Shown: positions 3,998 to 63,543 of the stretch, in pieces
Position numbering within the stretch: position 1 is the stretch's first letter
Layout of the letters: each line of letters opens with the position of its first letter
Source: Candidatus Nomurabacteria bacterium
GTDB taxonomy: Bacteria; Patescibacteriota; Minisyncoccia; Phycocordibacterales; UBA9973
NCBI GenBank assembly: GCA_026395915.1
Contig: JAPLXU010000011.1
Coordinates: 15,688 to 79,687, forward strand
DNA length: 64,000 nt
Reading direction: 5' to 3'
The notes under the pieces: generated by a model
The model's database searches: none
Told to the model about the DNA's origin: nothing
Seen by the model: only the letters and a program-made list of their open reading frames with translations
Made by a program: the position numbers and the translations under genes

Positions 3998-4059
3998 ACT
4001 TTTTATATATTACCATATTATTGAAAATACGATAAATTTTCCAGCTTTTCTACCATGTT

Positions 4060-4086
4060 GAACATATGTAAAAGATAGTAGAAAAC
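4060..4086. promoter_or_regulatory. Palindromic operator-like site (core ACATATGT), copy 1. It lies between the 3' end of the wHTH gene and the gatB start.
   Basis: gaacatatgtaaaagatagtag is near-identical to the copy at 4704-4726 and is flanked by inverted ttctac/gtagaa. Confidence 0.45.
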
Positions 4087-4093
4087 ATTAAAA

Positions 4094-4663
4094 CTAATTC
4101 TTTGATTCAAGAGTTCCATTTTTTGCAACCTCCAAGATTTCCACATAATCTATAATCCCCAGCCTATTTATATCAACGATAAACCTTTCTGGTAACGTCA
4201 CTTTGCCAACCCAAACACTTTTGTGAATCAAATTAAAACCTATCATCCGTAGCATATCTCTCAAGATATTTCTTTCTCTGTTAAAAGCCACTGGTATATC
4301 GTAACTCACGACTATCACACTTTCCCCTATCCTTTTCTTATATGCATCTTTGTTTAAGGAAAATGATTTTTTAAAATTATCTAATTTTTTCTTCCCTTTG
4401 TCACTCAAATATATTTGTTTTGAACTATTTTCCAGAATAAATCCTTGACTTTTTAATTTATATAAATATTTTCTAAATTTATCCATTTTTTGTTTGTCTA
4501 ATTGTGAATTTATTCTTTTATTTTGTATTTTAAAAAATTCATATTTTATTTTGCCTCCGGTCGCGCCATATCCAGCCTTAAGAAAAGCATTCGTAAAATC
4601 AATATAGTTGAACACTCCACTTTCCAAAGAGTTTAAAATTTTATAAAGTATTTCTCCTTTCAT
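4094..4663 (-). CDS. Putative transcriptional regulator: N-terminal winged-helix plus C-terminal PaaX-C/Cas2-VapD-like domain
   Basis: 189 aa. N-terminal HTH-like segment. The C-terminal segment SVIVVSYDIPVAFNRERNILRDMLRMIGFNLIHKSVWVG resembles PaaX C-terminal / Cas2-like fold proteins. It is flanked on both sides by ACATATGT palindromic sites. Confidence 0.5.
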   Translation of the reverse strand: MKGEILYKILNSLESGVFNYIDFTNAFLKAGYGATGGKIKYEFFKIQNKRINSQLDKQKMDKFRKYLYKLKSQGFILENSSKQIYLSDKGKKKLDNFKKSFSLNKDAYKKRIGESVIVVSYDIPVAFNRERNILRDMLRMIGFNLIHKSVWVGKVTLPERFIVDINRLGIIDYVEILEVAKNGTLESKN

Positions 4664-4691
4664 ACCATCTATTATACAACAATTTTATCTC

Positions 4692-4726
4692 GTCTACTAT
4701 ATCGAACATATGTTAAAGATAGTAGA
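4692..4726. promoter_or_regulatory. Palindromic operator-like site (core AACATATGTT inside a 9-bp inverted repeat GTCTACTAT...ATAGTAGAC), copy 2, in the promoter region of the wHTH gene
   Basis: gtctactatatcgaacatatgttaaagatagtagac. Confidence 0.45.
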
Positions 4727-4758
4727 CAAACCAAAATCTAGTTTATTACAATAAAATT

Positions 4759-9129: not shown

Positions 9130-9245
9130 ATTACCACCTCGCTCTGACTAAAAAGTCAGAGCACTCCTCCTTATCAAGGAGGAGATTCCTAGAAACTCCC
9201 CTCCTTGTGGAGGAGGGGGTTGGGGGTGGTGATTATTTTTTGCAA
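9130..9245. repeat. Array of three G/C-rich hairpins plus T-tract (terminator of the exonuclease gene), containing direct repeat GGAGGGGGTTGGGGGTGGTGATT
   Basis: CTCTGACT-aaaa-AGTCAGAG, CTCCTCCTT-atc-AAGGAGGAG and CCCCTCC-ttgt-GGAGGAGGGG, followed by the G-run and T-tract. Confidence 0.7.
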
Positions 9246-9569
9246 AACTCCATCTATATTTGTATTTATTTCTGTATTAGTAAAACGTAAAACTTTTATG
9301 CTAAGACCTTCAAAAAATTTAGTACGTATCTCGTCATATTTCTGGCTATCTTTTGTAAAATGTTGAGAGCCATCAATTTCTATTGCTAATTTTTTTGTGG
9401 GACAATAAAAGTCTATAATATATCCTCCAATACTATGCTGGCGTCTAAACTTTAGACCTATCTGAGAATTTTTCAGTTTCAACCACAATAAAATTTCTTG
9501 AGGCGTGCTATTGTTTCTTAATTCTTTTCTTCTTGGAAACAATTTTTTGATATTGTTGATTGTTTTCAT
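9189..9569 (-). CDS. DUF559 (Vsr-like) endonuclease domain protein
   Basis: Internal start MKTINNIKK. DUF559 motifs (TPQEILLWLKL, IDFYCP..LAIEIDGSQH, R..FLE-like tail). The ORF-track N-terminal extension is only translation of the G-rich hairpins. Confidence 0.75.
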   Translation of the reverse strand: MKTINNIKKLFPRRKELRNNSTPQEILLWLKLKNSQIGLKFRRQHSIGGYIIDFYCPTKKLAIEIDGSQHFTKDSQKYDEIRTKFFEGLSIKVLRFTNTEINTNIDGVLQKIITTPNPLLHKEGSF

Positions 9570-9574
9570 TGTCT

Positions 9575-9690
9575 TACCCCCCTCCTTAGTTAAGGAGGGG
9601 GCTGGGGGTGGTAATTCCGAATTCGGATCACCACCCCGCCCTTCAGGCACCCCTCCTTTCACAAGGAGGGGTTGTTCATTTAAGCATAAT
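9575..9690. repeat. Second hairpin array upstream of the DUF559 gene, containing direct repeat GGAGGGGGCTGGGGGTGGTAATT
   Basis: CCCCCTCCTT-agtt-AAGGAGGGGG, GGGGTGGTaaTTCCGAATTCGGAtcACCACCCC and CCCCTCCTT-tcac-AAGGAGGGG. Confidence 0.7.
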
Positions 9691-16940: not shown

Positions 16941-18284
16941 TTATTTCTTCTTCAGCCACTCGTCGTCTTGACGAACCAACAGTTTATTTTTATTTTCTTT
17001 ATCAAAGAGTATTGCTTCCACGACGCGTTCCATGCGCATGCCTTGCGAACCTTTCACGAGGACCAAGTCCCCTTTTTGTATAAAAGTTTTCATAAACTCG
17101 CCGGCTTGCGATGAATCTAGGAATTCAAAAAAGCTCGCCTCGTTCATTCCTGTTTCGAGCGCGCCTTCTTTGATGGCTTTCGCTCTCGGTCCGACAACGA
17201 CAAGCGCGTCGCATTTTTCTTTCGCCATCCTGCCGATATTTTTGTGGGCTTCCACGGTGTGCTTTCCTAATTCGAGCATGTCCCCTAGCACAGCAATTTT
17301 CCTTTCGCCAAATTTTACTTCTCTTAAAGTTTCAAGCGCAGATTCACATGCAAAAGGTGAAGAATTGTAAGTGTCATCAATAATCATTGAATCATTTATT
17401 CCTTTGAGGAGTCGCATCCGTCCGCTCGGAACATCGTAATTTTTCAAAGCATCTATCGCCTCCAACATATTCAATTTCAAAACCGAAGAGAGCGCGAGCG
17501 CTGCCATAGACGCATAGACATGATTCCTGCCAAAAACTCCTTCAATAATGACAGGCAAACTTTTACCATCTGAGTCCACTCTGAAAATAATTCCTGTCGG
17601 CTCGCTGGTAGTGGCATACAAAATATCTACGCCAGAACCCAAGATATCCGCGCCTTCTTTGAAGCCGTAAGTTATGATGCGAGATTTGCTGAGATTTTTC
17701 ATTTTCGACACATCTTCATCATCGGCGTTCAATATTAAAAAACCGCCCCCGCCTGCATCAGCTATGCTGGAAGCATTGCGGGCAGGTTTTTTTAAAGTTT
17801 TGATGAGTTTACTTTTTTCTTCAATCAAATGTTTACGCGAAGTAAAAAATTCTATATGAGCAGGAGTCTCGCCAATGGCCGTAATGATGACCACATCCGT
17901 CTTGAGCCAAGAAGCAGTCCGACGCATATCGCCCGGATGTCCCACACCGACTTCAAGAACCAGCCACTTTGGATATTGAGAAGATTTGAACGGATTTATA
18001 AAAAGCCAAAGACCTTTAAGAACATTCAAGAGCCAAATAAAAGGATTATTCCAGCCATTCGGAATACCTAAAATAGTAAGAGGCAAACCTATTTCGCTAT
18101 TGTAATTTTTGTTTGCCTTGCGGACGTGAGACACTTTTGAAAGAACCGCATAAACCGCGTCTTTTGTAGAAGTCTTGCCGACGCTTCCAGTGATAGCAAT
18201 GATTTTCGGCTTGTATCTGAAAAGCACCAGGCGCGATTCTATCTGTAAAATATAAGCTATTATTTTTTTGAAAATTGTTTTCAT
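16941..18284 (-). CDS. murF: UDP-N-acetylmuramoyl-tripeptide--D-alanyl-D-alanine ligase
   Basis: 447 aa. Mur ligase P-loop ITGSVGKTSTKD, central and C-terminal Mur domains. It contains the in-frame 38-nt PARNASSIADAGG element at 17749-17786. Confidence 0.9.
   Translation of the reverse strand: MKTIFKKIIAYILQIESRLVLFRYKPKIIAITGSVGKTSTKDAVYAVLSKVSHVRKANKNYNSEIGLPLTILGIPNGWNNPFIWLLNVLKGLWLFINPFKSSQYPKWLVLEVGVGHPGDMRRTASWLKTDVVIITAIGETPAHIEFFTSRKHLIEEKSKLIKTLKKPARNASSIADAGGGGFLILNADDEDVSKMKNLSKSRIITYGFKEGADILGSGVDILYATTSEPTGIIFRVDSDGKSLPVIIEGVFGRNHVYASMAALALSSVLKLNMLEAIDALKNYDVPSGRMRLLKGINDSMIIDDTYNSSPFACESALETLREVKFGERKIAVLGDMLELGKHTVEAHKNIGRMAKEKCDALVVVGPRAKAIKEGALETGMNEASFFEFLDSSQAGEFMKTFIQKGDLVLVKGSQGMRMERVVEAILFDKENKNKLLVRQDDEWLKKK
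17749..17786. repeat. In-frame palindromic element, copy 1 (in murF)
   Basis: ccgcctgcatcagctatgctggaagcattgcgggcagg. Read on the gene strand it encodes PARNASSIADAGG. Confidence 0.85.
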
Positions 18285-18336: not shown

Positions 18337-18383
18337 AGATAGCGCCTAAAGCCCTATTTTAGATAGGGCTTTAGGCGCTATCT
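18337..18383. repeat. Perfect 21-bp stem / 5-nt loop hairpin at the ftsI 3' end, between ftsI and murF
   Basis: AGATAGCGCCTAAAGCCCTAT-tttag-ATAGGGCTTTAGGCGCTATCT. Confidence 0.75.
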
Positions 18384-20485: not shown

Positions 20486-21385
20486 CTATAAGCGGGATAA
20501 AATCCTCAACTTCGCGCTTCTCGATCTCGGATTATTTTTAATTTCTTCTGCTTTCGCTATGATCGGTTTTTTGTTTACTAATTTTGCTAAATTTTCTTCG
20601 GCTAATTTTTTATAAAATCTTTTCACTATTCTGTCTTCCAAACTATGGAAAGAAATTACCGACATCCTCCCGCCAACTTTTAACGATTCGAATCCTTTCT
20701 CGAGTCCCTCGGAAAGCGCTCCTAATTCATCGTTGACCGCTATCCTTATCGCTTGAAAAGTTTTTGTGGCAAAGTGTATTTTCCATTTTCGAAACTTTGC
20801 CGGAATTGCGTCCTCTATTATTTTTACCAAGTCGAAAGTGGTTTCAATCTTTTTCTCTTTCCTAAAATCCACTATCGCTTTGGCTATCCTGCGAGCTTGC
20901 TTTTCCTCGCCGTAACCGTAAATAATATCTGCTAAACTCTTCTCCTCCCAGGTGTTCACGACATCTAGCGCCGTGACATCTTCTGGAAGAGGATTTTCTT
21001 TCATAGTCATGGAGAGTGGTTCATCTCTCATGAAAGAAAATCCTCGTCCAGAATTCTCTAATTGATCCGAACTCAAACCTAAATCAAAAATAATTCCGTC
21101 AACTTTTCCGACACCTTCCTTTCCCAAAACCTTATCTATATTCCTGAAATTTTCATTTGCGAAAGAAATGTCGCAATCCAAATCCTTGAACTTCTCTTTT
21201 GCTTTTTCGAAAGCACCTTGGTCTTGATCGAGGGCAATAATTTTCACATCCGGAAATCTTTTGCAAATTTCTAGACTGTGTCCCCCTCCGCCAAATGTGC
21301 AATCAATCACCAAAGATTTTGGTTTTAAATCGAGACCCTCTATTGTTTCTTGTAAAAGAACTGTCTTGTGTGCGCTTGTCATCAT
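20486..21385 (-). CDS. rsmH: 16S rRNA (cytosine1402-N4)-methyltransferase RsmH (MraW)
   Basis: 299 aa. HKTVLL, DCTFGGGGHS and ALDQD motifs. Confidence 0.95.
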   Translation of the reverse strand: MMTSAHKTVLLQETIEGLDLKPKSLVIDCTFGGGGHSLEICKRFPDVKIIALDQDQGAFEKAKEKFKDLDCDISFANENFRNIDKVLGKEGVGKVDGIIFDLGLSSDQLENSGRGFSFMRDEPLSMTMKENPLPEDVTALDVVNTWEEKSLADIIYGYGEEKQARRIAKAIVDFRKEKKIETTFDLVKIIEDAIPAKFRKWKIHFATKTFQAIRIAVNDELGALSEGLEKGFESLKVGGRMSVISFHSLEDRIVKRFYKKLAEENLAKLVNKKPIIAKAEEIKNNPRSRSAKLRILSRL

Positions 21386-24465: not shown

Positions 24466-24918
24466 ATGCAAGAGAACTTTTCTCTAATAAACAAAACTAG
24501 AAGCAAGCTTCCCCGCTTGCCTTTTCTCGACATTAAAGATGATATTTTGGGTAAAAAATATTTCCTGTCACTTGCCTTTGTCGATAAAAAAAAATCAAAA
24601 GAAATAAACAAGACTTATCGAAATAAAGACAAACCCACAAATATACTATCCTTTTCTTTGCGTAAAAATGAAGGCGAGATCGTTTTGTGTCCGGCTGTTA
24701 TAAAGCGCGAAGCAAAAAATTTTGGGAAAACTTTTGAGCAATTTTTGGGCTTTTTAGTTATCCACGGAATGCTTCATTTGAAAGGTTTCGAACATAGTAG
24801 TACAATGGAGGTAGCAGAAAATAAATATGATCAGAAATATCTCAGTGGGAATAGACTTAGGCTCAGGGATGACGAGGGTCATCGTGGGAGAGTTTTTCAA
24901 AGGAGAAAAAAATCCTAA
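24466..24918 (+). CDS. ybeY: rRNA maturation endoribonuclease YbeY
   Basis: HGMLHLKGFEH zinc-binding motif. The 3' end overlaps the ftsA start by about 90 nt, so the true stop and start may differ. Confidence 0.75.
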   Translation: MQENFSLINKTRSKLPRLPFLDIKDDILGKKYFLSLAFVDKKKSKEINKTYRNKDKPTNILSFSLRKNEGEIVLCPAVIKREAKNFGKTFEQFLGFLVIHGMLHLKGFEHSSTMEVAENKYDQKYLSGNRLRLRDDEGHRGRVFQRRKKS

Positions 24919-25990
24919 AATTATTGGCGTGGGTGAAAGTGAGACGCTCGGCATGCAACATGGATACGTTGTTGATCCTGTTGAAACAACTGTTTCCGTA
25001 AAAAATGCTATAAGCATGGCAGAAAAATCTTCGGGAGTAAAAATAAAACGCGCGTTCGTTTCAGTTGGTGGCATAAGTCTCCGCGGAGAGACGAGTTCCG
25101 GTTCAGCAATCATCTCCAAAGCTGATGGCGAAGTAACAAGTTTGGATATAAATAAAGCTCTGCAGGATTGCGAGGATAATTTGAATTTAAATAACAAAAA
25201 AATCATTCAGACATTCCATATTTCTTCCCGTTTGGATGGAAAAGAAGTGCGGGGTCGTCTCGAAGGCATGCGCGGAACTAAGCTTGAAATAAAAGCCTTT
25301 TTTCTTACTTATTCCATTCAGCACTTAGAAGATCTGATAGAAGTTATCGCCAAAGCGGAAGTGGAAACTATAGACGTCATAGCTTCCCCTATCGTCCTTG
25401 GCCAGATCGCCTTATCTGAAAGACAAAAAATAGTCGGCGTGGCGCTCGTCAACATAGGACAAGAAACGACATCACTTTCTGTCTTTGAAAACGGATTGCC
25501 GATTTTAGTTCACACTTTTTCCATCGGCGGGGCAGATATCACAAACGACATCGCGCTTGGATTCAAGATTCCACTCAATGTGGCAGCACGTTTCAAACAA
25601 GATGGAGTTGAAGAAAACTTTTCTAAAAAGAAATTAGATGAAATCATCGAGGCGCGACTCTCAGATATTTTTGAATTGATAGAAAATCATTTAAAAAAAA
25701 TAAAACGAAACGGACTCTTGCCGGCGGGCATTGTGTTCACAGGCGGAGGAGCAAATGTCGGAGGATTACTCGAACTTTCAAAATCAGTTCTCAAACTCCC
25801 AGCGGGCTATGGATCAACAGAAATTTTTGGCAATTCAAAAACAAAACTTCGTGACTCGGCGTGGTTCACTTCACTCGGATTGGTGGTTTCTGGCAGAGAC
25901 AATGACAGCTATTCCGGAAATTCATTAAAAAATCTTTTTAAAGATCTAAAAAATACAGTAAAATCAAGCATAAAACAGCTGATGCCATAA
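24827..25990 (+). CDS. ftsA: Cell division protein FtsA
   Basis: 387 aa. Actin-like ATPase motifs (VGIDLGSGMTRVIVGE, FTGGGANVGGL). Confidence 0.85.
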   Translation: MIRNISVGIDLGSGMTRVIVGEFFKGEKNPKIIGVGESETLGMQHGYVVDPVETTVSVKNAISMAEKSSGVKIKRAFVSVGGISLRGETSSGSAIISKADGEVTSLDINKALQDCEDNLNLNNKKIIQTFHISSRLDGKEVRGRLEGMRGTKLEIKAFFLTYSIQHLEDLIEVIAKAEVETIDVIASPIVLGQIALSERQKIVGVALVNIGQETTSLSVFENGLPILVHTFSIGGADITNDIALGFKIPLNVAARFKQDGVEENFSKKKLDEIIEARLSDIFELIENHLKKIKRNGLLPAGIVFTGGGANVGGLLELSKSVLKLPAGYGSTEIFGNSKTKLRDSAWFTSLGLVVSGRDNDSYSGNSLKNLFKDLKNTVKSSIKQLMP

Positions 25991-25991
25991 G

Positions 25992-26017
25992 CCACTTGGA
26001 GGCTTTGCCTCCAAGTG
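25992..26017. repeat. REP-like hairpin, copy 1 (cacTTGGAGGCtttGCCTCCAAgtg)
   Basis: 9-bp stem, 3-nt loop, immediately upstream of the RAYT gene. Confidence 0.75.
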
Positions 26018-26030
26018 CTATACTTGAGTT

Positions 26031-26678
26031 ATGTCATTAAGAAAAACCAATTTTGTAGAAGGTGAATATTATCATATCTACAATAGAGGCGTTGATAAGC
26101 GAGAAATTTTTTCCGATAAATTTGACTTAGAAAGATTCTTACAAAGTATGGAAAGTTTCAATACTAAGGATCCTATCGGGAGTTTATATGAAAATAGTTT
26201 TATAAAAAAGAAAGCACTTGGAGGCAAAGCCTCCAAATTGGTTAATTTTGTGGCTTATTGTTTGAACCCTAATCATTATCATTTTATTATTACTCCCCTC
26301 GTAGAAAAAGGAATCGAAAAATTCATGCAACGACTTGGAACAGGCTATACCATGTACTTCAATGAGAAAAATAAAAGATCTGGTTCGCTTTTTCAAGGGA
26401 AATTTAAAAGTAAACACTTAAATTCAAATGAATATTTACTTCAAGCAAGCTCCTATGTAAATTTAAACAACTATGATAAAAATGGGGTAATCAAAAAATC
26501 TTTAAACTCGTCAAGTTGGATTGAATATACTCAACCAACTAATAATGTTGAGTTTTGTGAAAAATCGATAGTGCTTGGTCAATTTGAATCCAAAAAAGAA
26601 TATGAAAAATTCGCACTGGAAACTTGGAGAAATACATGCGAAAGAAAAGAAGAAATAGAAAATCTTGAATTTATTTAA
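26031..26678 (+). CDS. IS200/IS605-like Y1 transposase, REP-associated tyrosine transposase (RAYT)-like
   Basis: 215 aa. YHIYNRGVDKREIF and NPNHYHFII (HuH) motifs. Associated with three REP-like hairpins, one of them inside its own CDS. Confidence 0.7.
   Translation: MSLRKTNFVEGEYYHIYNRGVDKREIFSDKFDLERFLQSMESFNTKDPIGSLYENSFIKKKALGGKASKLVNFVAYCLNPNHYHFIITPLVEKGIEKFMQRLGTGYTMYFNEKNKRSGSLFQGKFKSKHLNSNEYLLQASSYVNLNNYDKNGVIKKSLNSSSWIEYTQPTNNVEFCEKSIVLGQFESKKEYEKFALETWRNTCERKEEIENLEFI
26215..26238. repeat. REP-like hairpin, copy 2 (inverted orientation), in-frame inside the RAYT CDS
   Basis: cacTTGGAGGCaaaGCCTCCAAattg encodes ALGGKASKL. Confidence 0.7.
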
Positions 26679-26706
26679 CTTAGATGTCCTACCTTTTAAT
26701 CTTCAA

Positions 26707-27402
26707 CTAGCTATTTACAGACCGAAGCTGTGAATATCTGTAAGGTATTGTAAATAATACGATAACAACGGCAAAAATAACACTATTCATACTCAATAAG
26801 CCAAAGTAATTCATAATCAAAGAGATTGCTATAATAAGAACAGTCAGCAATGTTTCTGCTTTGATTCTTTTTTCAACTGCCTGCTTACGTAACACTGGAT
26901 CATTAATAAACTGAAAAGGATATTTGACAAACTCATTGGCAGAAATATTTTTTACACCTGAAAAATAAAATAAGGTACTCAATAACATAAATAATCCTCC
27001 ATAAAAAAGAATGGGAACTATTATCGAAATTGCATTATCAGAAAAAATTTCATATTTACTTAGTGGAAAAAATATTAAAGGAGAAATAAGTATAAAAAAT
27101 GATGTCCAAATTAGATTTCTATACTTTTCTACTTTCTTTTTAAAATTTTCATCATAAATAATTTCTTGTGACATAGATGATTCACTATCAGACCAAATTC
27201 TTCTTGAAAGATAAACTGAAAAAATATTCCAAAAAATAATTATCAGCAACAAAATTATGATAGAAGTTGTTTGTCCAAAATTAATAAATCCTTTAAGAAA
27301 TACAGACAAAATGGCACCCGCAAAGAAACTTAAGAAAACATTAATAATTATAAAAGATACTCGATACGGTCGTTTTGAATTAGTTAAATTTATGTTTTTC
27401 AT
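26707..27402 (-). CDS. Hypothetical polytopic membrane protein
   Basis: Start at internal MKNINLT. Upstream ORF-track residues are translation of the REP hairpin. Six or more TM helices. Confidence 0.5.
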   Translation of the reverse strand: MKNINLTNSKRPYRVSFIIINVFLSFFAGAILSVFLKGFINFGQTTSIIILLLIIIFWNIFSVYLSRRIWSDSESSMSQEIIYDENFKKKVEKYRNLIWTSFFILISPLIFFPLSKYEIFSDNAISIIVPILFYGGLFMLLSTLFYFSGVKNISANEFVKYPFQFINDPVLRKQAVEKRIKAETLLTVLIIAISLIMNYFGLLSMNSVIFAVVIVLFTIPYRYSQLRSVNS

Positions 27403-27440
27403 GTTTGAATTATAGTTTAATAAAAATAAAAACTCAACAC

Positions 27441-27467
27441 TACTTGGAGGTCTTGCCTCCAAGTGGG
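27441..27467. repeat. REP-like hairpin, copy 3 (taCTTGGAGGtcttGCCTCCAAGtggg)
   Basis: Together with copy 1 it brackets the 1.45-kb RAYT-plus-membrane-gene insert between ftsA and ftsZ. Confidence 0.75.
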
Positions 27468-27544
27468 CTTGTTTTTGGAGTTGCTTTTTTTTGCTTGAGT
27501 GATAGTATGCCTTTATACAAGTTAATTATTAATAACTATATTTT

Positions 27545-28765
27545 ATGCCAAAAATAAATCAAGAAATACAAAGTTTCGCTCGCATCATGGTCATCGGAAT
27601 AGGAGGGTCTGGAAAGAACGCCGTCAACCACATGATAAATTCTAAAGTCAAAGGAGTCTCTTTTATTTGCATGAACACTGACACGCAAGATTTGCATAAC
27701 TCACTCGCTGAGAAAAAAATTCATATTGGAAAAAATCTGACGAAAGGTCTCGGCGCCGGCATGGATCCGGAAGTCGGAAAGAAAGCCGCTGAAGAAACAA
27801 AATCTGAAATTCAAGATGTCATCAAAGGAGCAGACATGATCTTCATCGCTTGCGGAATGGGCGGAGGCACAGGCACAGGCGCAGCTCCGATCGTCGCTCG
27901 CGCGGCGAGAGAACAAGGCATCTTGACTGTGGCTGTCACGACCAAGCCTTTCTTTTTTGAAGGCAATCACCGAATGAAAATCGCCGAAAAAGGAATCGAA
28001 GAATTATCAAAGGAAGTTGATGCGATTATTATAATTCCAAACGACAAATTGCTCCAGCTAGCCGACAAAAACACCAATTTTAAAGACGCTTTCAGTAATT
28101 GCGACAATGTCCTCCGTCAAGCTGTTGAAGGCATTTCGGACCTTATCACTACCCCCGGCATCATCAATGTTGACTTCGCAGATATCAAAGCCGTAATGCG
28201 AGACGCAGGTAGCGCTCTCATGGGCATCGGAATATCATCAGGTGAAAAGCGAGCAGAAAAAGCTGCTCTCGCCGCGATCAATTCTCCGCTCTTGGAAATT
28301 TCTATTCACGGCGCAAAAGGAGTGCTCTTTGCCATTTCCGGCGGAGACGATTTGACCATTCATGAAATCCAAGAAGCTGCAAAAATAATCACGGAGTCCA
28401 TCGACAAAGACGCCAAAGTGATCTTCGGCACAATTCGTGATGAGAAATTAAAGAAAGGTGAATTGAAAGTCACAGTCATCGCCACGAACTTCCCTGCCGA
28501 CATGCCTCGCAAGAACCTTTTCAGCGGAACAGGAGCGGTAAATCAAACATTACTCAAAGAAGACAATGCTAATTTGGCTAAAAAAGAGATAAATAACAGC
28601 ATCAATAGCGTAAAAAATGTAAGTACAAATAGCAACATCAGCAGTAATGATTTTATAAAAAAGATGGACAACAACAAGAAACCAGAGCCGATAAAGGACA
28701 TAATTATAGAGGATGACACAGATGACTGGAGCGCTGTTCCAGCATTTCTACGACGCAAGAAATAA
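27545..28765 (+). CDS. ftsZ: Cell division protein FtsZ
   Basis: 406 aa. [10 protein letters not shown], tubulin signature [11 protein letters not shown]-terminal conserved peptide [13 protein letters not shown]. Confidence 0.95.
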
Positions 28766-38934: not shown

Positions 38935-41169
38935 ATGGATTCCAAACTGCCTGAGAAGCTACTTAAACCTTTTAACCCAAAAGAAACCGAAGAAAGAATA
39001 TACAAGCTATGGGAAGATAGCGGTTTTTTTGCGCCTGAAGTACACCCTACTTGGGTGGATGATTCTTCCTTAAACGAGAATTTTGGGAAACCTTTTACTT
39101 TGATAATGCCACCAACAAATGCCAACGGGTCTCTCCATGCTGGGCATGGCTTGGTCATGACTATCGAAGACATAATGGTGCGTTATAAGAGAATGCGAGG
39201 CTTCAAAACGCTTTGGCTCCCGGGATTGGATCATGCCGGTTTCGAGACGCAGGTGGTGTATGAAAAAAAACTGGAAAAAGAAGGACGAACGAGATTTGAA
39301 ATTGAACCCAAAAAACTGTATGAAGAAATTCTTGATTTCACTCTAACTAATTCAAAAAACATAAAATCTCAAGTTAGAAAAATGGGGGCGTCTTGCGATT
39401 GGTCTCGTGAGAAATTCACGTTGGATCCCGACATTGTGAAAATTGTTTATCAAACATTCAAAAAATTGTCCGACGACAATTTGGTGTACAGAGGAAACAG
39501 AATCGTGAGCTGGTGCTCGAAACATCAAACCTCTTTTTCTGATTTAGAAATACTAGACGAAGAACGAATAGATAATTTTTATTATTTGAAATATGGACCG
39601 TTTGTAATAGGCACTTCACGACCGGAAACAAAATTTGGCGACAAATACGTCGTGATGAATCCAAATGATGAAAGATATAAAGACTACAAAGATGGCCAAA
39701 AAATAAAGCTGGAATGGATAAATGGCCCGATAGAAGCCACTATCGTGAAGGACGAGGCAGTAGATATGGAATTTGGCACGGGCGTAATGACCATCACGCC
39801 TTGGCATGACACCGCGGACTTTGAAATCGCTGAAAGACACAAACTTGATAAAGAACAGATCATCGACGAGAATGGAAAATTGCTTCCTATCGCAGGAGAA
39901 TTTGCTGGACAGCATATCAAAAAAGCCAGAGCCTTGATCATAGAAAAACTGCAGAAAAAAGGTTTGGTGGAAAAAATTAATGAAAAATATAAACATGTCG
40001 TGAGGACATGTTACAAATGTGGGACAGTGATAGAACCGCAAATAAAAAATCAATGGTTTGTAAAAATGAAACCCTTAGCAGAGAAAGCTTTGGAAAAAAT
40101 AAATAACGGAGAAATAAAATACATCCCTGATCATTACAAAAAAGTTAGCATTCACTGGCTCTCGAATATTATGGATTGGAATATTTCCAGACAAATAGTC
40201 TGGGGCATACCGATACCGGCAAAAATTTGCGTAAAATGTGGAGCCGGCATGGTAGATCTAGATAATAAAATAAAAAAATGCGCTTCTTGTGGTGGTGAAG
40301 TCGCGCAAGACAAGGACACTTTTGATACTTGGTTCTCTTCCGGCCAATGGCCTTTTGCCACACTTGGCTATCCGGATGGAAAGGATTTTAAAACATTTTA
40401 TCCGACAGACGTCATGGAAACAGCCGGAGAAATTATATTTTTCTGGGTATCTAGAATGATAATGCTTGGCTTGTATGTTACCGGAGAAATTCCATTCAAA
40501 AATGTGTATCTGCATGGTTTGGTTTTAGACGCCAAGGGTCTCAAAATGAGCAAAAGCAAAGGAAACGTTATTGATCCGTTGATACTTACAGGAAAATATG
40601 GCACAGACGCATTTAGAATAGGTATGGTGATTGGCAACACTCCGGGCACTTCGCTGGCTCTTGCGGAAGAAAGGATCCGCGGTTATGGAAAATTTGCCAA
40701 CAAAATCTGGAATGCCACAAGATTCGTGCTTGATAATACAAAAGACTTCAACAATAGTAACACTGAAATAAAATATGATGAAGAAGATAAAAAATCAGAT
40801 GAAGAATTAAAAAAACTAGTAGAAGAAATAACAAAAGAGATGGACGAATATAAGTTCTACATCGTGGCGGAAAAAATCTACCATTATTTTTGGCATACTT
40901 TTGCGGACATCATTATTGAGCGATCAAAAAAGAAAATTCTAGAAAACAAAAATGCAGACTCGGCAAAAGCACTTGTTTATTCACAACTCGTCACCCTTCT
41001 CAAGGTTCTCCATCCTTTTATGCCTTTTGTTACGGAAGAAATTTGGCAAATATTATTACCCCGACGTAAAGTCGGGGAGCCGACTGAAATGTCGGCTTTA
41101 ATGGTTGAAAAATGGCCTGCCCGCAATGCTTCCAGCATAGCTGATGCAGGCGGGCCCGAATCCAAATGA
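38935..41169 (+). CDS. valS: Valine--tRNA ligase
   Basis: 744 aa. HAGHG (HIGH) and KMSKS present, CP1 editing domain, Zn-knuckle cysteines. No C-terminal coiled coil. Carries the PARNASSIADAGG element near its C-terminus. Confidence 0.95.
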   Translation: MDSKLPEKLLKPFNPKETEERIYKLWEDSGFFAPEVHPTWVDDSSLNENFGKPFTLIMPPTNANGSLHAGHGLVMTIEDIMVRYKRMRGFKTLWLPGLDHAGFETQVVYEKKLEKEGRTRFEIEPKKLYEEILDFTLTNSKNIKSQVRKMGASCDWSREKFTLDPDIVKIVYQTFKKLSDDNLVYRGNRIVSWCSKHQTSFSDLEILDEERIDNFYYLKYGPFVIGTSRPETKFGDKYVVMNPNDERYKDYKDGQKIKLEWINGPIEATIVKDEAVDMEFGTGVMTITPWHDTADFEIAERHKLDKEQIIDENGKLLPIAGEFAGQHIKKARALIIEKLQKKGLVEKINEKYKHVVRTCYKCGTVIEPQIKNQWFVKMKPLAEKALEKINNGEIKYIPDHYKKVSIHWLSNIMDWNISRQIVWGIPIPAKICVKCGAGMVDLDNKIKKCASCGGEVAQDKDTFDTWFSSGQWPFATLGYPDGKDFKTFYPTDVMETAGEIIFFWVSRMIMLGLYVTGEIPFKNVYLHGLVLDAKGLKMSKSKGNVIDPLILTGKYGTDAFRIGMVIGNTPGTSLALAEERIRGYGKFANKIWNATRFVLDNTKDFNNSNTEIKYDEEDKKSDEELKKLVEEITKEMDEYKFYIVAEKIYHYFWHTFADIIIERSKKKILENKNADSAKALVYSQLVTLLKVLHPFMPFVTEEIWQILLPRRKVGEPTEMSALMVEKWPARNASSIADAGGPESK
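41116..41153. repeat. In-frame palindromic element, copy 2 (in valS), identical 38/38 to copy 1
   Basis: cctgcccgcaatgcttccagcatagctgatgcaggcgg, encoding PARNASSIADAGG. Confidence 0.85.
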
Positions 41170-54966: not shown

Positions 54967-55239
54967 AAAACATCAAAAGAAAATACAAGTAGCGTGGGCG
55001 ATTGTCAGCGTTCTCATTATCATCAGCATGATCTTGCTCTATTCGCCGATTTTTAGACTGAAATAAAATAAATTAAGATTTTTTATTTTCTACCATCTTT
55101 TACATATGTTCGAGATAGTAGACATGAACTTTTTATTAAAAATGATAAAGCCCGCTTCTATGTTGAAAACGGGCCTTTACGATACGCGACAATTTTTTAT
55201 AGAGGAAGTCGCGACGATTCCTATGACGATAGCAAGAGA

Positions 55240-56029: not shown

Positions 56030-57886
56030 CTATTTCTCCCCACTACGCATCATTTTCAGGAATACATCTTGCGGGATGTTTACTTTGCCTCTTTCTTTCA
56101 TTTTCTTCTTGCCCTTTTTTTGTTTTTCCCTGAGTTTCATCTTTCGAGTGATGTCACCTCCATACATGTGCGCAGTGACGTCTTTTTTCATGCCGGAAAG
56201 CGTACGGGAAGAAATAATTCTTCCAAAAGCTTTGCCTTGGATTTTCAGAGTAAACATTTGTCTTGGCAAAAGACTCTCGAGTTTCAAAACGGATTGTTCC
56301 GCCTCAATCTCCGCTCTTTTTTTGGAAACAACTTTAGAAAAAGCCGGCACAGGTTCGTCTGCAACAAGAACGTCTAATCGTGTGACATTCGCTTCGCGAT
56401 TTTCGGCTATTTCATAAGATATTGATCCATAACCAGACGTCGCGCTTTTTAGTTCATCAAAAAAATTACGCATAAGCTCGCGGAGAGGCATTCGAACAGA
56501 CAAAGATGATCTATTATCTCCAAAATTTTCCGTGTCCCCCACTTCCCCTTCGTGATCAAAAAGGATTTGCATAATATTGCCTAGATAATTCGATGGCGAG
56601 ATTATTTTCGCGTTCACCCATGGCTCAAAAACTGTCTTGATATTGCCATCGTCAGGAAAAAAATATGGAGAATAAACTTTTTCCCCGCCTGCAACGCTTT
56701 GCGTAGCATTGCGGGCAGGTCTTTTGTCATCATTGTAAAACACTTCATAGACGATAGAAGGCGTAGTTATGACCAAATTCAAATTAAATTCCCGCTTCAG
56801 TCTTTCTGTGATAATTTCTAAATGAAGCATGCCAAGAAAACCACAGCGGAATCCTCTGCCGAGAGATCCAGACGATTCTTCTTCAAAAGAAAAAGATGAA
56901 TCAGAAAGCTTTAATTTGCCCAAGGCTAGCTTGAGAAGAGCAAAATCGTCAGCATCTTCTGGAAAAACACTAGCCCAAACCACAGGCATAGGTTGCATAT
57001 ATCCTGAAAGCGCCTCTAAGGGAAATTCTGCTTTTGTGATAGTGTCTCCGACGGAAGCAATACCCGGCTTCTTGATGCCAGTGACAATATAGCCAATCTC
57101 TCCAGAAGAAAGAGACTCATGCGCATTTTCTTCAGGCGAAAATATGCCAACCTCCAAAGCGGTGAATTTTTCGTTTGACACAGCAAAAATCAAATCATCA
57201 CCTTTTTTCACATGACCATCAAGAATGCGTACAAAAACTATCACCCCACGATGATTTGAATACTTGAAATCAAAAACAAGAGCACGCAAAATATTCGGCT
57301 CACTTTCATTTTGAGAAGTTTTCGGCGCCGGGACACGTTTAATAATTTCTTGTAAAAGATTTTCCACTCCCTCTCCCGTCCTGCCAGACACTTGCAGAAT
57401 TTCTTCTTTTTTGCAATTTAAAAGTTTTACAACTTCGTCCTCTACTTCCGATATCCTTGCGAGTGGTGAATCAATTTTTGTGATAACCGGAATAATTTTT
57501 TTGATCATTTTTGAATCTTCTCCTTTAGCCATCGCAAGGGTAGTGAGAGTCTGCGCTTGGACTCCTTGAGTAGAATCAACCAATAAAATTGAACCTTCGA
57601 CAGCTTTCAAGGCGCGCGAAACTTCATAAGAAAAATCCACGTGACCCGGAGTATCAATAAGATTTAATATGTACTTTTCTTTATTGAAAGTATATTCCAT
57701 CCTAACAGGTTGCATTTTGATAGTGATCCCCCGTTCACGTTCGAGTTCCATTGAGTCGAGCACTTGGTCGCGCATCAAACGTTCTGGAACAGTGTGCGTA
57801 ATCTCAAGCATCCTGTCTGCCAAAGTGCTTTTGCCGTGGTCAATATGCGCAATTATTGAGAAATTTCTAATGTGTTTTAAATCCAT
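56030..57886 (-). CDS. lepA: Elongation factor 4 (LepA)
   Basis: 618 aa. G domain (AHIDHGKSTL, DTPGH, TKID) and LepA C-terminal domain. Carries a divergent 35-nt copy of the palindromic element (PARNATQSVAGG). Confidence 0.95.
   Translation of the reverse strand: MDLKHIRNFSIIAHIDHGKSTLADRMLEITHTVPERLMRDQVLDSMELERERGITIKMQPVRMEYTFNKEKYILNLIDTPGHVDFSYEVSRALKAVEGSILLVDSTQGVQAQTLTTLAMAKGEDSKMIKKIIPVITKIDSPLARISEVEDEVVKLLNCKKEEILQVSGRTGEGVENLLQEIIKRVPAPKTSQNESEPNILRALVFDFKYSNHRGVIVFVRILDGHVKKGDDLIFAVSNEKFTALEVGIFSPEENAHESLSSGEIGYIVTGIKKPGIASVGDTITKAEFPLEALSGYMQPMPVVWASVFPEDADDFALLKLALGKLKLSDSSFSFEEESSGSLGRGFRCGFLGMLHLEIITERLKREFNLNLVITTPSIVYEVFYNDDKRPARNATQSVAGGEKVYSPYFFPDDGNIKTVFEPWVNAKIISPSNYLGNIMQILFDHEGEVGDTENFGDNRSSLSVRMPLRELMRNFFDELKSATSGYGSISYEIAENREANVTRLDVLVADEPVPAFSKVVSKKRAEIEAEQSVLKLESLLPRQMFTLKIQGKAFGRIISSRTLSGMKKDVTAHMYGGDITRKMKLREKQKKGKKKMKERGKVNIPQDVFLKMMRSGEK
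56685..56719. repeat. In-frame palindromic element, copy 3 (in lepA, divergent centre, 3 nt shorter)
   Basis: ccgcctgca-ACGCtttGCGT-agcattgcgggcagg. The frame is preserved. Confidence 0.8.
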
Positions 57887-61422: not shown

Positions 61423-63543
61423 TTATGGCTTTTTTGTGGTTGTTTTTGTAGATGGTTTCGTTGTTGCAGGAGTCAAAGTTTTTAGAGAATCAACATATTT
61501 TATCAAATTTGCATCAGTTGGAGTGATAGAAAGAGCTTCCTCTCCATAACTAAGGGCGTTTGCATTGTTGCCTTCGCTTTTTGCTATTTGAGAAAGGGTG
61601 ACTAGCGCGTCAACATAATCCGGCTTGAGAGCGAGAGCGGAATTCGCGTAATCTCTCGCCTCTTTGATTTTTCCGTCTAGAAACGACGCAGTCGCCATGG
61701 AAAGTTTGAGACCCGGATTGAGCGGATTCAAATTGGAAGCGCTTTGATAAGCGACGACGGCCTCGCTATAAGCATTCTTTACCCCGAGCGAACCCACTGC
61801 TTGATAGACCGAACCGAGCAATTGAAAATTTACATAATTTGACGGATCATATCCTGTCGCCAACTGCGCGCTTTTTACAGCTTGATCAAAACTTGCTTGC
61901 AAATCTGTCTTGTCGCTATCAGACAAGGCCGAACCTTTACCCACTATAGAATTTAATTTTCCAAGATACACCTGCGAATAAGTGCGTAGATATAAATCAC
62001 TCGTGAAAAGAGAAAGGGCTTTGCTTATGGAACTTTCGGCGACTGCTTCTGTTTGCGCTGACAACGCTTTTCCAAAATATGGAACTGAAGATACTCGCTC
62101 GAAATACTTAAACGCAAGCGCGATAGAAATAATTATCAGGAAAATAAGGAAAAGCATCGAAAAGAAACTTTTTCTGTGATCACTCAAGAACGATATGGAT
62201 ACTTCTCTATCTGAATTGGAGTTAACTAAACCAACAAACACTCCTGTGAAAGCGAGAGATAACAAAAACATCACGACTCCAGTCGAATAAAAGAAAGAGG
62301 AAACGAACAAATAAAGAGATAAAATGAAAAACGCCATCATCTCCCAATTCGTTCCTTTCTTGATACTCAAAAACACCGACTTAACACCAATAATCAAAAA
62401 CAGAATAAAAAAAGTAAGCCAAGCGAGAATGTTTAGAATTCCGGCTGTGGCAGTTAAAGTTGGTAGCAATCCTGAGCCAAAATCAAAAGAAGTGTCCCAA
62501 AATTGGGTGCCATTTATAGCCTGTGGCTTGTACATTGACCACGCTTCTTTGAATCTGTTTGGGCCAACTCCAAAAATAGGATGAGCAAAAAGCACTCCTT
62601 TTGTTATAGACATAGTCGATCCAAGAGAAGGGCTGACTTCGGAATTTGATATCTGCAAATAATTTGGAATAATGCTCCCGATAGAACTCCCCGACATAAA
62701 GAACAAGAGAGAAATCATCACAACAACAAAAGGAATTACTGGGAAATGCTTTCTCCCGCCTGCATCAGCTATGCTGAAAGCATTGCGGGCAGGCTCGTCC
62801 ATTTCCCCTCCACCTTTCTCATAAGTAGTCGAGGCCTTGTAGACAAAAATGACCAAGCTGGAGATTCCGAGAATTATCCAAACCAATGGAGAATTTACTG
62901 CCGCCGCTACCAATATTCCGAGCAAAATAAATATTTGAAGCAAGATTTTTTCCACTTTGGAAATAGGAAAAAATTCAATAACCAAAAGAAACATCAGACA
63001 AGAAAATCCGGCAAAAAGGCCGAGCGCGTTCCACGAACCCAAAATATTGGAAGTCTTATCAGCTAAAATTTTCATTGATGTAGCAACTGGGAAAAATACG
63101 TGAACGCTTTGGAAAATTAGAACCAGAACCGAAGACAATATCGCCCCGAGCAGAACGATCTTCGCCCGTTTAGGTGTCTTGAAGATAATAGAAGACATCA
63201 GCATCAAAACAAAAGCGGAAAAAATAAACCAAAAAGATCCTATGTCAAACATTGTGCCGAACCATGACACTTGCGAGTTGCCAGAAAAAAGAACAGAGAG
63301 AAGTAAAACCAAAACTATGCCGAAACCGGACACTAATAGCCATGATTTCGGAAAAATTATTTTGCCGTCAAAAAATCGAGCAATTGCCCAAAAAATAATA
63401 GAGAGAGTAAGTCCTAAAACCAAGAGCAGACCTTTGGAAGTCTCAATCGGAATGTTTGTAAAAGGCAAACAGAAGAAAGGCAACAAAACAACGACCAAGA
63501 ATAATGACAAGAACGAAAGCCTCTCAAATATATTTTTTTGCAT
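61423..63543 (-). CDS. O-antigen ligase (Wzy_C)-like polytopic membrane protein with C-terminal TPR repeats
   Basis: 706 aa. At least 10 TM, a GVGPNRF loop and C-terminal TPR-like repeats. Carries copy 4 of the palindromic element (PARNAFSIADAGG). Confidence 0.55.
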   Translation of the reverse strand: MQKNIFERLSFLSLFLVVVLLPFFCLPFTNIPIETSKGLLLVLGLTLSIIFWAIARFFDGKIIFPKSWLLVSGFGIVLVLLLSVLFSGNSQVSWFGTMFDIGSFWFIFSAFVLMLMSSIIFKTPKRAKIVLLGAILSSVLVLIFQSVHVFFPVATSMKILADKTSNILGSWNALGLFAGFSCLMFLLVIEFFPISKVEKILLQIFILLGILVAAAVNSPLVWIILGISSLVIFVYKASTTYEKGGGEMDEPARNAFSIADAGGRKHFPVIPFVVVMISLLFFMSGSSIGSIIPNYLQISNSEVSPSLGSTMSITKGVLFAHPIFGVGPNRFKEAWSMYKPQAINGTQFWDTSFDFGSGLLPTLTATAGILNILAWLTFFILFLIIGVKSVFLSIKKGTNWEMMAFFILSLYLFVSSFFYSTGVVMFLLSLAFTGVFVGLVNSNSDREVSISFLSDHRKSFFSMLFLIFLIIISIALAFKYFERVSSVPYFGKALSAQTEAVAESSISKALSLFTSDLYLRTYSQVYLGKLNSIVGKGSALSDSDKTDLQASFDQAVKSAQLATGYDPSNYVNFQLLGSVYQAVGSLGVKNAYSEAVVAYQSASNLNPLNPGLKLSMATASFLDGKIKEARDYANSALALKPDYVDALVTLSQIAKSEGNNANALSYGEEALSITPTDANLIKYVDSLKTLTPATTKPSTKTTTKKP
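62756..62793. repeat. In-frame palindromic element, copy 4 (1 nt different from copy 1)
   Basis: ccgcctgcatcagctatgctgaaagcattgcgggcagg. Confidence 0.85.

Follow-up and report, generated by a model that had tools for sequence, protein, structure and literature searches.

What is a gene for a transposase-like protein, surrounded by near-identical DNA hairpins, doing between ftsA and ftsZ in Candidatus Nomurabacteria? The locus lies in a 64-kb stretch of a contig of this organism (hereafter the window), and this stretch is the part of the source genome that was examined. An earlier note on the window had described a Y1 transposase gene like those of REP-associated tyrosine transposases (RAYTs), with cognate repetitive extragenic palindromes (REPs) around it and one inside it, splitting ftsA from ftsZ. 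In this study, the protein, the hairpins and their counterparts in related genomes were analysed, and we consider that the locus is probably a resident REP/RAYT-type system of Patescibacteria (Candidate Phyla Radiation, CPR). The element comprises the following features, in window coordinates:

25993-26017, no strand: upstream hairpin (hp1), CACTTGGAGGC-TTT-GCCTCCAAGTG, 11-bp stem
26031-26678, plus strand: HUH/Y1 (RAYT-like) gene, 215 amino acids (aa), with a Pfam Y1_Tnp match, conserved catalytic residues and a fold match
26216-26238, no strand: internal hairpin (hp2) at the canonical site "internal-1", ACTTGGAGGC-AAA-GCCTCCAAAT
26679-26693, no strand: putative decayed stop-codon hairpin (hp3), remnant CTTAGATGTCCTACC
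27440-27466, no strand: distal hairpin (hp4), CTACTTGGAGGT-CTT-GCCTCCAAGTGG, with one G.T pair

The motif ACTTGGAGG-N5-CCTCCAAGT occurs three times, at 25993-26017, 26216-26238 and 27440-27466, and a search of the 64 kb for TTGGAGGCNNNGCCTCCAA with up to two mismatches also returned three copies (25996-26014, 26218-26236 and 27444-27462). At the same tolerance, the palindrome TTGGAGGC-NNN-GCCTCCAA has three copies, all inside 1.5 kb, against 0.01 expected from dinucleotide shuffles; none of 100 shuffles gave three. Folding as single-stranded DNA yielded -12.9, -9.5 and -9.7 kcal/mol for hp1, hp2 and hp4, with z-scores of -6.3, -3.9 and -4.4, respectively. The AAA loop of hp2 is the reverse complement of the TTT loop of hp1, relative to which hp2 is inverted. 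It lies in frame within the open reading frame (ORF) 26031-26678, where it codes for ALGGKASKL, LGGKASK being residues 63-69. The mapping of these three copies bears out the claim that cognate hairpins flank the Y1 gene and that one of them sits inside it in frame. The stretch at 26679-26693 matches the copy at the related locus L112 at 15 of 25 positions (manual count) and has lost its fold. The close relatives all have an intact hairpin beginning at the Y1 stop codon, and judging from these intact copies CTTAGATGTCCTACC is probably a decayed remnant of that canonical stop-codon hairpin. No known RNA family was found by Rfam in the region 25500-28000 at E-values up to 1.

The 215-aa protein matched the hidden Markov model (HMM) PF01797 (Y1_Tnp), the check proposed beforehand, with 29.5 bits against a gathering cut-off of 23, over residues 67-144. 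Its HuH motif, NHYH, occupies residues 81-84 (nt 26271-26282) and the catalytic Tyr142 lies in YVNLNN (nt 26454-26456); H82, H84, Y142, N144 and N146 are invariant in 95 homologous sequences. For the AlphaFold (AF2) model (predicted local distance difference test, pLDDT, 83.3; predicted template modelling score, pTM, 0.82), the best Foldseek match in PDB was 4er8_A, E. coli TnpAREP bound to a REP hairpin (E 5.4e-4, probability 1.0). It was followed by the TnpA proteins of IS608, ISDra2 and IS200, and the top 23 matches were all Y1 transposases. More than 5000 homologues are found in the database, nearly all precomputed as PF01797. They are about 205-235 aa long, share 46-91% identity, and come almost entirely from Patescibacteria (Nomurabacteria, Paceibacterota, Minisyncoccia, Zambryskibacteria and others). 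The protein, which also has a conserved C-terminal tail, is a predicted HUH/Y1 single-strand-DNA nuclease-ligase of the TnpA(Y1) superfamily with intact catalytic residues. The Pfam match, the invariant H82, H84 and Y142 and the fold of 4ER8 all speak for the RAYT-like identity claimed before.

The hairpin architecture was compared among 95 Y1 genes drawn from the window, 120 genome loci and 80 metagenome loci (numbered with the prefix L). Relative to the Y1 start, hairpins cluster at -29 to -56 (the upstream site, on the promoter), +178 to +208 (internal-1, represented by hp2), +445 to +481 (internal-2, after the catalytic Tyr) and +620 to +700 (the stop codon). Most of the 95 homologues have hairpins directly upstream of the gene and at its stop codon, and the family-wide unit is hairpin, Y1 gene and stop-codon hairpin, about 0.72 kb in all. 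The internal sites were also extracted by protein alignment, independently of the hairpin search; a perfect stem of at least 8 bp was present at internal-1 in 49/86 and at internal-2 in 42/86 unique genes. The in-gene copy described earlier can therefore be placed more exactly: two canonical sites in frame are conserved throughout the family, and it occupies one of them. Internal-2 has been lost in the clade of the window, and the stop-codon copy additionally in the window itself. With hp1, hp2, hp4 and the probably decayed hp3 here and flanking hairpins in most of the homologues, the proposed REPtron-like arrangement was confirmed.

The outer stem, ACTTGG/CCAAGT, is nearly invariant family-wide, with frequent extension to CCAC...GTGG or CCAA...TTGG. 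Between loci, the loop and the four inner pairs vary; at any one locus they are identical at all positions, coding or not. The inner-stem variants include AGGC/GCCT (the window), AAGC/GCTT, CGGT/ACCG, ACAC/GTGT, ACAT/ATGT, GGGT/ACCC, AAAC/GTTT and GTGC/GCAC. Among 200 instances selected only by CTTGG-N11-CCAAG, 15 different inner stems were seen, and all four inner pairs were Watson-Crick in 146. In 105 distinct 23-mers 96.2% of cells were paired, and the four inner pairs showed 34, 42, 21 and 38 double-sided changes. The covariation score was 0.341 as against 0.134 in shuffles, with 0/500 shuffles as high, and sliding the partner column by one lowered the pairing to 44-51%. The peptide coded at the internal sites follows the variant (LGGKASK, LGSEASK, LGGSTAK, LGHPMSK, LGNLVSK, LGCGAPK, LRRPTSK and others), and both internal sites of one protein carry the same peptide.

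These data bear on the notion that a conserved protein motif, LGGxASKL, gives rise to the in-gene hairpin as a by-product, the hairpin's likeness to the flanking palindromes being secondary. LGGxxSKL is indeed common to most of the close homologues that were aligned first. Against this, the peptide changes with the variant of the locus, pairing is kept by compensatory changes, and the same variant is seen in the non-coding copies of the locus. The residues concerned also fall in a low-confidence loop: residues 63-65, coded by hp2, have pLDDT below 50 and lie between helix 52-61 and the strand leading to the HuH motif. The explanation is scarcely credible and was rejected on the covariation and the variant-dependent peptides. 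Because changes are compensatory and peptides depend on the variant, the conserved entity, as read from the alignments, is the DNA hairpin and not the peptide LGGKASK. Structure in the sense RNA was also considered as the selected entity. G.T mismatches number 23 on the sense strand and 21 on the antisense strand; with no asymmetry between G.U and A.C, nothing marks the sense RNA alone as the selected molecule, and this candidate was rejected.

Copies outside Y1 loci were sought in one genome per species with the pattern CTTGGAGG-N5-CCTCCAAG. At least 120 loci were found, the great majority in Patescibacteria; Saccharibacteria, Moranbacteria, Kaiserbacteria and Vogelbacteria are among the loci listed, most of which have no Y1 gene within 8 kb. 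Between contigs of one genome, hairpin centres were identical in 16/25 pairs, compared with 4.95% between genomes. The Minisyncoccia metagenome-assembled genome (MAG) JBAPNK01 is an example: its Y1 locus (L002) and a doublet found on a second contig (L046) share the TTCTT variant. Singlets (23 bp) and inverted doublets (X-AAGT-revcomp X; 44 nt) that sit in frame in housekeeping genes account for many of the copies, the genes for PurL, LeuRS, RNase R, PurD, PheT, a methyltransferase and RsmH among them. The flanks of homologous loci, roughly 500 kb in total, contain about 13 exact-core copies, and in six cases this is the copy that lies beyond the cargo slot described below. Local enrichment at the Y1 locus is estimated at roughly 300-fold (3-5 copies in about 0.75 kb, against about one per 70 kb of flank). 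The RsmH doublet of L001 (5332-5369) replaces a loop of nearly equal length and is not a simple insertion; no target site or clean insertion footprint could be read there. With both a Y1 match and scattered copies in related Patescibacteria genomes found, the notion of an enzyme with its own palindromes stands.

Three further observations were made at these loci. RsmH of L004 (3328-4254; compare 20489-21382 in the window) contains another in-frame palindrome, TCCGCCAGCCGGCGGA, coding for SPPAGGS, and it may be common in these genomes for housekeeping genes to carry small palindromes in frame. In LeuRS of L089, a Zambryskibacteria MAG, residues 74-206 match Pfam Aminoglyc_resit (aminoglycoside-2''-adenylyltransferase) with 42.9 bits; this unexpected insertion domain directly follows the editing-domain match (residues 1-59). 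Finally, a recurring 31-nt palindrome, GAACCCTTGGAGGCAAAACCTCCAAGGGTTC, was met in Verrucomicrobia and Akkermansia (L032, L034, L041, L063, L078, L111, L113 and L123). It has a GGAGG/CCTCC core in common with the CPR hairpin and different flanks, and is probably an unrelated repeat family caught by the search pattern.

The upstream hairpin also appears to serve as a promoter, for which one further feature is listed:

26019-26024, plus strand: putative -10 box of the Y1 gene, TATACT, with conserved geometry across loci

TTGGAG, in the left arm of hp1, lies 17 nt upstream of TATACT, and the TG of an extended -10 comes from the right arm. The hairpin likewise runs into an extended -10 (CCAAGTG into TG-n-TATAAT) at most of 86 homologous loci. 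The Y1 ATG follows 6 nt after TATACT in the window and 5-8 nt past the -10 across loci, the commonest distance from hairpin end to ATG being 13 nt. This spacing implies a leaderless or near-leaderless Y1 mRNA, transcribed from a promoter that, to judge by the conserved geometry, would be built from hp1.

Such a promoter invites the reading that the palindromes are ordinary operators, terminators or mRNA stem-loops, the Y1-like protein a domesticated binder that no longer cuts, and the scattered copies a regulon or terminators. The overlap of hp1 with the Y1 promoter in most loci fits it, and so do the low copy number, the housekeeping-like conservation of the gene and the terminator-like look of hp4, which closes the cargo slot and, on the plus strand, precedes first a T-run and then the promoter region of ftsZ. 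E. coli REPs, moreover, act on mRNA stability and termination. A role in binding only, however, would not need HuH and Tyr residues that are invariant in 95/95 homologues, and in-frame inverted doublets in PurL, LeuRS, RNase R, PurD and PheT are hard to explain as operators or terminators. Relatives also differ in the orientation of hairpin centres at corresponding sites: that of hp4, which is asymmetric, has opposite orientations in L004 and in the window, with the ftsZ-side flank unchanged. The near-equal numbers of sense and antisense G.T mismatches given above give no sign of selection on the sense RNA alone either. We judge a purely regulatory role of these palindromes unlikely.

The next question is whether the Y1 gene is newly arrived between its neighbours, which are:

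24827-25990, plus strand: ftsA, with Pfam FtsA (66.5 bits) and SHS2_FTSA
27545-28765, plus strand: ftsZ, with Pfam Tubulin (167 bits) and FtsZ_C (107 bits)

The ftsA stop codon lies 2 nt before hp1. Comparison of the ftsA-ftsZ junction in relatives, as had been suggested, found the order ftsA-Y1-ftsZ in eight diverged lineages (L001-3, L004-6, L061, L112, L127, L130, L131 and the window), whose Y1 proteins are 66-85% identical to that of the window; most sampled Nomurabacteria relatives retain this order. In the same genome pairs, nonsynonymous divergence (dN, Nei-Gojobori) was 0.07-0.21 for Y1, 0.06-0.14 for FtsZ and 0.12-0.32 for FtsA. The ratio of dN to synonymous divergence (dS) for Y1 was roughly 0.05-0.13, with dS near saturation. 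Given the synteny in diverged lineages and a Y1 dN between those of FtsZ and FtsA, the Y1 gene is, on these comparisons, best described as an old inherited resident under strong purifying selection and not as a recent insertion. The Y1 gene does part ftsA from ftsZ, as first noticed, but as an old inherited state of the clade and not through a fresh insertion. In other CPR classes the neighbourhood of Y1 differs, and two divergent Y1 genes, each with its own hairpin variant, occur on one contig at L135 and at L138. Among 2.9 million viral contigs neither the Y1 gene nor the hairpin was found, and there were no PHROG matches; a phage origin was rejected on these results.

An autonomous insertion sequence (IS) of the IS200/IS605 type (hairpin, tnpA, hairpin, perhaps carrying the membrane gene along) that had moved into the ftsA-ftsZ junction and was still a selfish unit would share with the locus the Y1 fold and hairpins at both ends. 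It would also suit the low G+C content of the segment (Y1 gene 29.6%, membrane gene 26.4%) beside ftsA (41.0%), ftsZ (43.7%) and the window mean (38.6%), the other genomic contexts in other CPR lineages and, within the clade, at L128/L129, and the paired Y1 copies at L135 and L138. What such an element would not explain is a position kept in eight diverged lineages with dN between FtsZ and FtsA. Only one Y1 gene is present in the 64 kb, and the L135 and L138 copies are divergent, each with its own variant. Both ends are the same palindrome, with no distinct left and right ends; the Y+4 residue is N, and the IS200 Y---Q signature is missing. The protein has 215 aa with a conserved C-terminal tail, there is no tnpB in the neighbourhood, the closest structure is TnpAREP and not IS608 TnpA, and gene and hairpin are absent from viral contigs. 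The usual marks of IS200/IS605 elements (multiple near-identical copies, Y---Q, distinct subterminal hairpins and often tnpB) were thus not found, and we hold such an element to be very unlikely. A recent IS event as the principal explanation was rejected on the synteny and dN, although one relocation exists (L128/L129). RAYTs, by comparison, are of low copy number, vertically inherited and housekeeping-like in their evolution (Bertels et al. 2017, PMC5581495). The Y1 gene behaves in the same way, with one copy in the 64 kb, synteny in eight lineages, dN between FtsZ and FtsA and absence from viral contigs.

The earlier note had taken the outer pair of hairpins to bracket a single 1.45-kb segment. 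The outer hairpins do bracket it, but the family unit ends at the stop-codon hairpin, and the membrane gene lies in a separate slot beyond, with the following features:

26707-27402, minus strand: cargo gene for a 231-aa polytopic membrane protein, a near-orphan, 26% GC, in the slot position
27409-27437, minus strand: cargo-gene promoter TTGAGT-17-TATAAT, sigma-70 type, matching at 10/12 positions

This promoter lies between hp4 and the ATG at 27402, with 6 nt separating the -10 from the ATG. As had been supposed, the membrane ORF owes its TTG-start extension (MEARPPSS...) to translation of the hairpin. The protein has no Pfam or NCBIfam family. Among 5.8 billion database proteins it had three matches, two of them non-self and both in a different context. 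The two homologues stand beside an NYN gene and a RelB/YafQ pair, without the hairpin, and the membrane gene was rejected on this ground as part of a conserved mobile module.

In relatives, the slot is bounded by the intact Y1 stop-codon hairpin and a further inverted copy; an equivalent of hp4 was found in L001, L004, L112 and L127. Its contents are as follows:

L001: PRK-type kinase
L004: DUF6899 protein
L112: helix-turn-helix (HTH) protein
L127: 203-aa unknown protein
L061, L130 and L131: nothing
Window: near-orphan membrane protein

These contents are unrelated between lineages whose Y1 proteins share only 77-85% identity. At two loci with Y1 outside ftsA-ftsZ, a gene is likewise enclosed by a further hairpin downstream of the stop-codon copy, DedA-like at L129 and prepilin-like at L132. 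In L001 (...LEEEPPS*) and L112 (...LEARPPS*) the end of the cargo ORF lies within the hairpin, and the outermost hairpins of L004 are perfect 27-nt inverted repeats. From this pattern of sequences, the membrane gene appears as cargo in a separate, variable, hairpin-bounded slot. Between the slot and ftsZ, a T-run is followed by a conserved TTGCTT...TG-n-TAGTAT stretch (27467-27544 in the window, 11327-11486 in L001, 11090-11188 in L004), so that ftsZ seems to be transcribed from a promoter of its own and shielded from the Y1/cargo insert.

Several findings weigh against a resident REP/RAYT-type system. Mobilisation of the hairpins by the Y1 enzyme would have to be read from the pattern alone. 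Apart from hp1, hp2 and hp4, the window contains no other copy of the palindrome, so that dispersal is demonstrable only in related genomes. There, truly scattered exact copies number about seven in roughly 500 kb of flanks, a low copy number where classical REPs reach hundreds of copies per genome. About 40% of homologues are without a perfect hairpin at a given internal site. The hp1 promoter was not called by a simple promoter scan, because its weak -35 matches at only 3/6 positions. Synteny is not absolute, since at L128/L129 the Y1 gene, 77% identical to that of the window and 83% to that of L112 at the protein level, lies between a DEAD-box helicase gene and dedA. The Y motif, YVNLN[ND], is unlike the class-2 Y---NP. 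A profile search of PDB sequences with the Y1 protein gave no match, and the NCBIfam REP_Tyr_transpos equivalog NF047646 was hit with 27.7 bits, below its cut-off of 80; the family is therefore distant from characterised RAYTs. Finally, the hairpins have the foot ACTTGG/CCAAGT and are without the 5' GT[AG]G foot by which canonical REPs are defined in a study that also described REPtrons for five TnpAY1 subclasses (Quentin et al. 2018, PMC6006769). These points notwithstanding, the resident system remains the reading that we prefer.

The family can be placed beside several known systems. Like E. coli TnpAREP (RayT/YafM; TnpAY1 subclass 2.2, PDB 4ER8), its best structural match, it has the HUH/Y1 fold. 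In both, a low-copy chromosomal gene is flanked by cognate palindromes in both orientations, palindrome copies are scattered (in the present family at low density, in related genomes), and enzyme and palindrome co-vary between genomes. It differs in that its sequence similarity lies below HMM detection in PDB sequences (and at 27.7 against 80 in NCBIfam). Its hairpins, unlike E. coli REPs, lack a 5' GTAG foot, have a perfect 9-11-bp stem with a 3-5-nt loop, number roughly one in tens of kb and not hundreds in a genome, and also lie inside coding sequences. The host, unlike E. coli, has an ultra-small genome. IS200/IS605 TnpA proteins recognise DNA hairpins beside the ends of their gene. The HUH/Y1 fold is common to these proteins (IS608, ISDra2) and the present one, whereas here there is no Y---Q and no tnpB, the palindromic ends are identical, and a single vertically inherited copy has a conserved neighbourhood.

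In-frame REPs inside RAYT genes have already been published for TnpAY1 subclass 2.4 of Cyanobacteria and Bacteroidetes (PMC6006769), where, as here, the reading frame stays intact, and REP insertions in unrelated genes were also noted. As in our case, the REPs of that subclass are "double-foot" palindromes, inserted in a peripheral region of the protein model (PMC6006769). Of the present sites, by contrast, one precedes HuH (residues 63-69) and the other follows the Y motif (about residues 150-157); the motifs are NHYH, FQ and YVNLN[ND] where subclass 2.4 has NH[IFV]H, WQ and YIxNNP, and the phyla differ. The putative promoter embedded in hp1 also sets the present family apart from the systems of PMC6006769. 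By the published motif table alone, the family looks most like subclass 2.1 (TIRYT, Bertels group 1), with NH[YF]H, FQ, Y[IV]HLNP, an "SS" tail motif and a longer protein. Subclass 2.1, however, is reported without REPs and with a C-terminal HTH, whereas here the hairpins are conspicuous and no Pfam HTH is present. Another comparison is with the Rickettsia palindromic elements (RPEs), which are reportedly inserted in frame into housekeeping genes of a reduced genome. No cognate enzyme is known for RPEs. They measure about 100-150 bp, as against 23 bp (singlet) or 44 bp (doublet) here, where the Y1 protein is a candidate cognate enzyme.

By analogy with IS608 TnpA and E. coli TnpAREP, the Y1 enzyme would recognise the hairpins in single-stranded DNA, nick beside them through Tyr142 and rejoin the strands. 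Nicking and rejoining would copy, flip, convert and homogenise hairpins at low frequency, which would explain their concerted evolution and the copies piled up around and inside the Y1 gene. The enzyme may act preferentially near its own gene, and this would explain the roughly 300-fold local enrichment. Within that gene only two surface loops would tolerate hairpins in frame. Protein binding, or extrusion of the hairpin at the promoter, might limit the enzyme's own expression (autoregulation). Downstream, the stop-codon hairpin and the second, inverted copy would bound a hotspot for foreign DNA insertion, with breaks or strand exchanges at the paired hairpins letting foreign DNA in. In this genome, the slot would have taken up an orphan membrane gene with its own promoter, and the stop-codon hairpin would have decayed later. 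We put forward gene capture by the hairpin slot as a hypothesis. A bolder version would see a phylum-wide, vertically kept HUH-Y1/hairpin system for editing single-stranded DNA. Its hairpins would be kept by concerted evolution at the enzyme's own two in-frame sites and in essential genes, its promoter would derive from a hairpin, and its slot would be an integron-like platform for foreign-gene capture run by a Y1 enzyme and not by an integrase. In this full form we find the proposal doubtful.

The window contains other palindromes and repeats. At 9141-9672, an ORF for a DUF559 endonuclease-like protein (9189-9662, minus strand; Pfam DUF559, 106.6 bits) is bracketed by different G+C-rich palindromes, CTCCTCCTT-ATC-AAGGAGGAG at 9164 and CCCCTCCTT..AAGGAGGGG at 9198, 9578 and 9649, each followed by GGGGGTGGT; it looks like another small hairpin-flanked element. 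A 39-46-nt repeat, CCCGCCTGCATCAGCTATGCTGGAAGCATTGCGGGCAGG, occurs in three to four copies of 93-98% identity (17748-17793, 41109-41154 inverted, 62755-62794 and, weakly, 56681-56719). The first copy of CCCGCCTGCATCAGCTATGCTGGAAGCATTGCGGGCAGG is followed by a T-run, there is no second Y1 gene in the window, and CCCGCCTGCATCAGCTATGCTGGAAGCATTGCGGGCAGG may be a second dispersed palindromic or terminator family of this genome. A palindromic repeat of about 47 nt, TCTAC(C/T)AT..GAACATATGT..AAGATAGTAGA(C/A), is present at 4038-4099, 4682-4743 and, inverted, 55076-55124, with 77-85% identity. The longest perfect palindrome in the window is the hairpin AGATAGCGCCTAAAGCCCTAT-TTTAG-ATAGGGCTTTAGGCGCTATCT at 18337-18383, with a perfect 21-bp stem.

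The earlier note had placed REP/RAYT systems mostly in Proteobacteria; they are documented in Cyanobacteria and Bacteroidetes as well (PMC6006769), and the present family would extend to Patescibacteria what has been characterised mainly in these three groups. The text of PMC6006769 makes no mention of Parcubacteria, Patescibacteria or Saccharibacteria, and full-text literature searches on RAYTs, REPINs or palindromes in connection with CPR, Patescibacteria or Parcubacteria gave no relevant paper. A system of the REP/RAYT type whose hairpins are non-canonical and partly intragenic thus seems not to have been described before in Patescibacteria or with this gene layout. The same REP/RAYT logic would operate in the smallest free-standing bacterial genomes, although non-IS tnpAY1 genes are reported to be commoner in large ones (PMC6006769). 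The family numbers more than 5000 proteins and its rate of evolution is about as low as that of FtsZ, which suggests an enzyme that is either useful to its host or inescapable by it. With few copies, perfect stems and genome-specific inner-stem variants, the system is easy to read, and its copies inside coding sequences expose a conflict between constraints at the DNA and the protein level. It may therefore offer a setting in which to study hairpin reading by Y1 enzymes, the homogenisation of hairpin families and the question whether pairs of hairpins can capture genes. For the annotation of CPR genomes, it would explain the recurrent LGGxxSK, LEAxPPS and TWRxxLQV peptide insertions, the false N- and C-terminal extensions of ORFs and the variable gene between ftsA and ftsZ.

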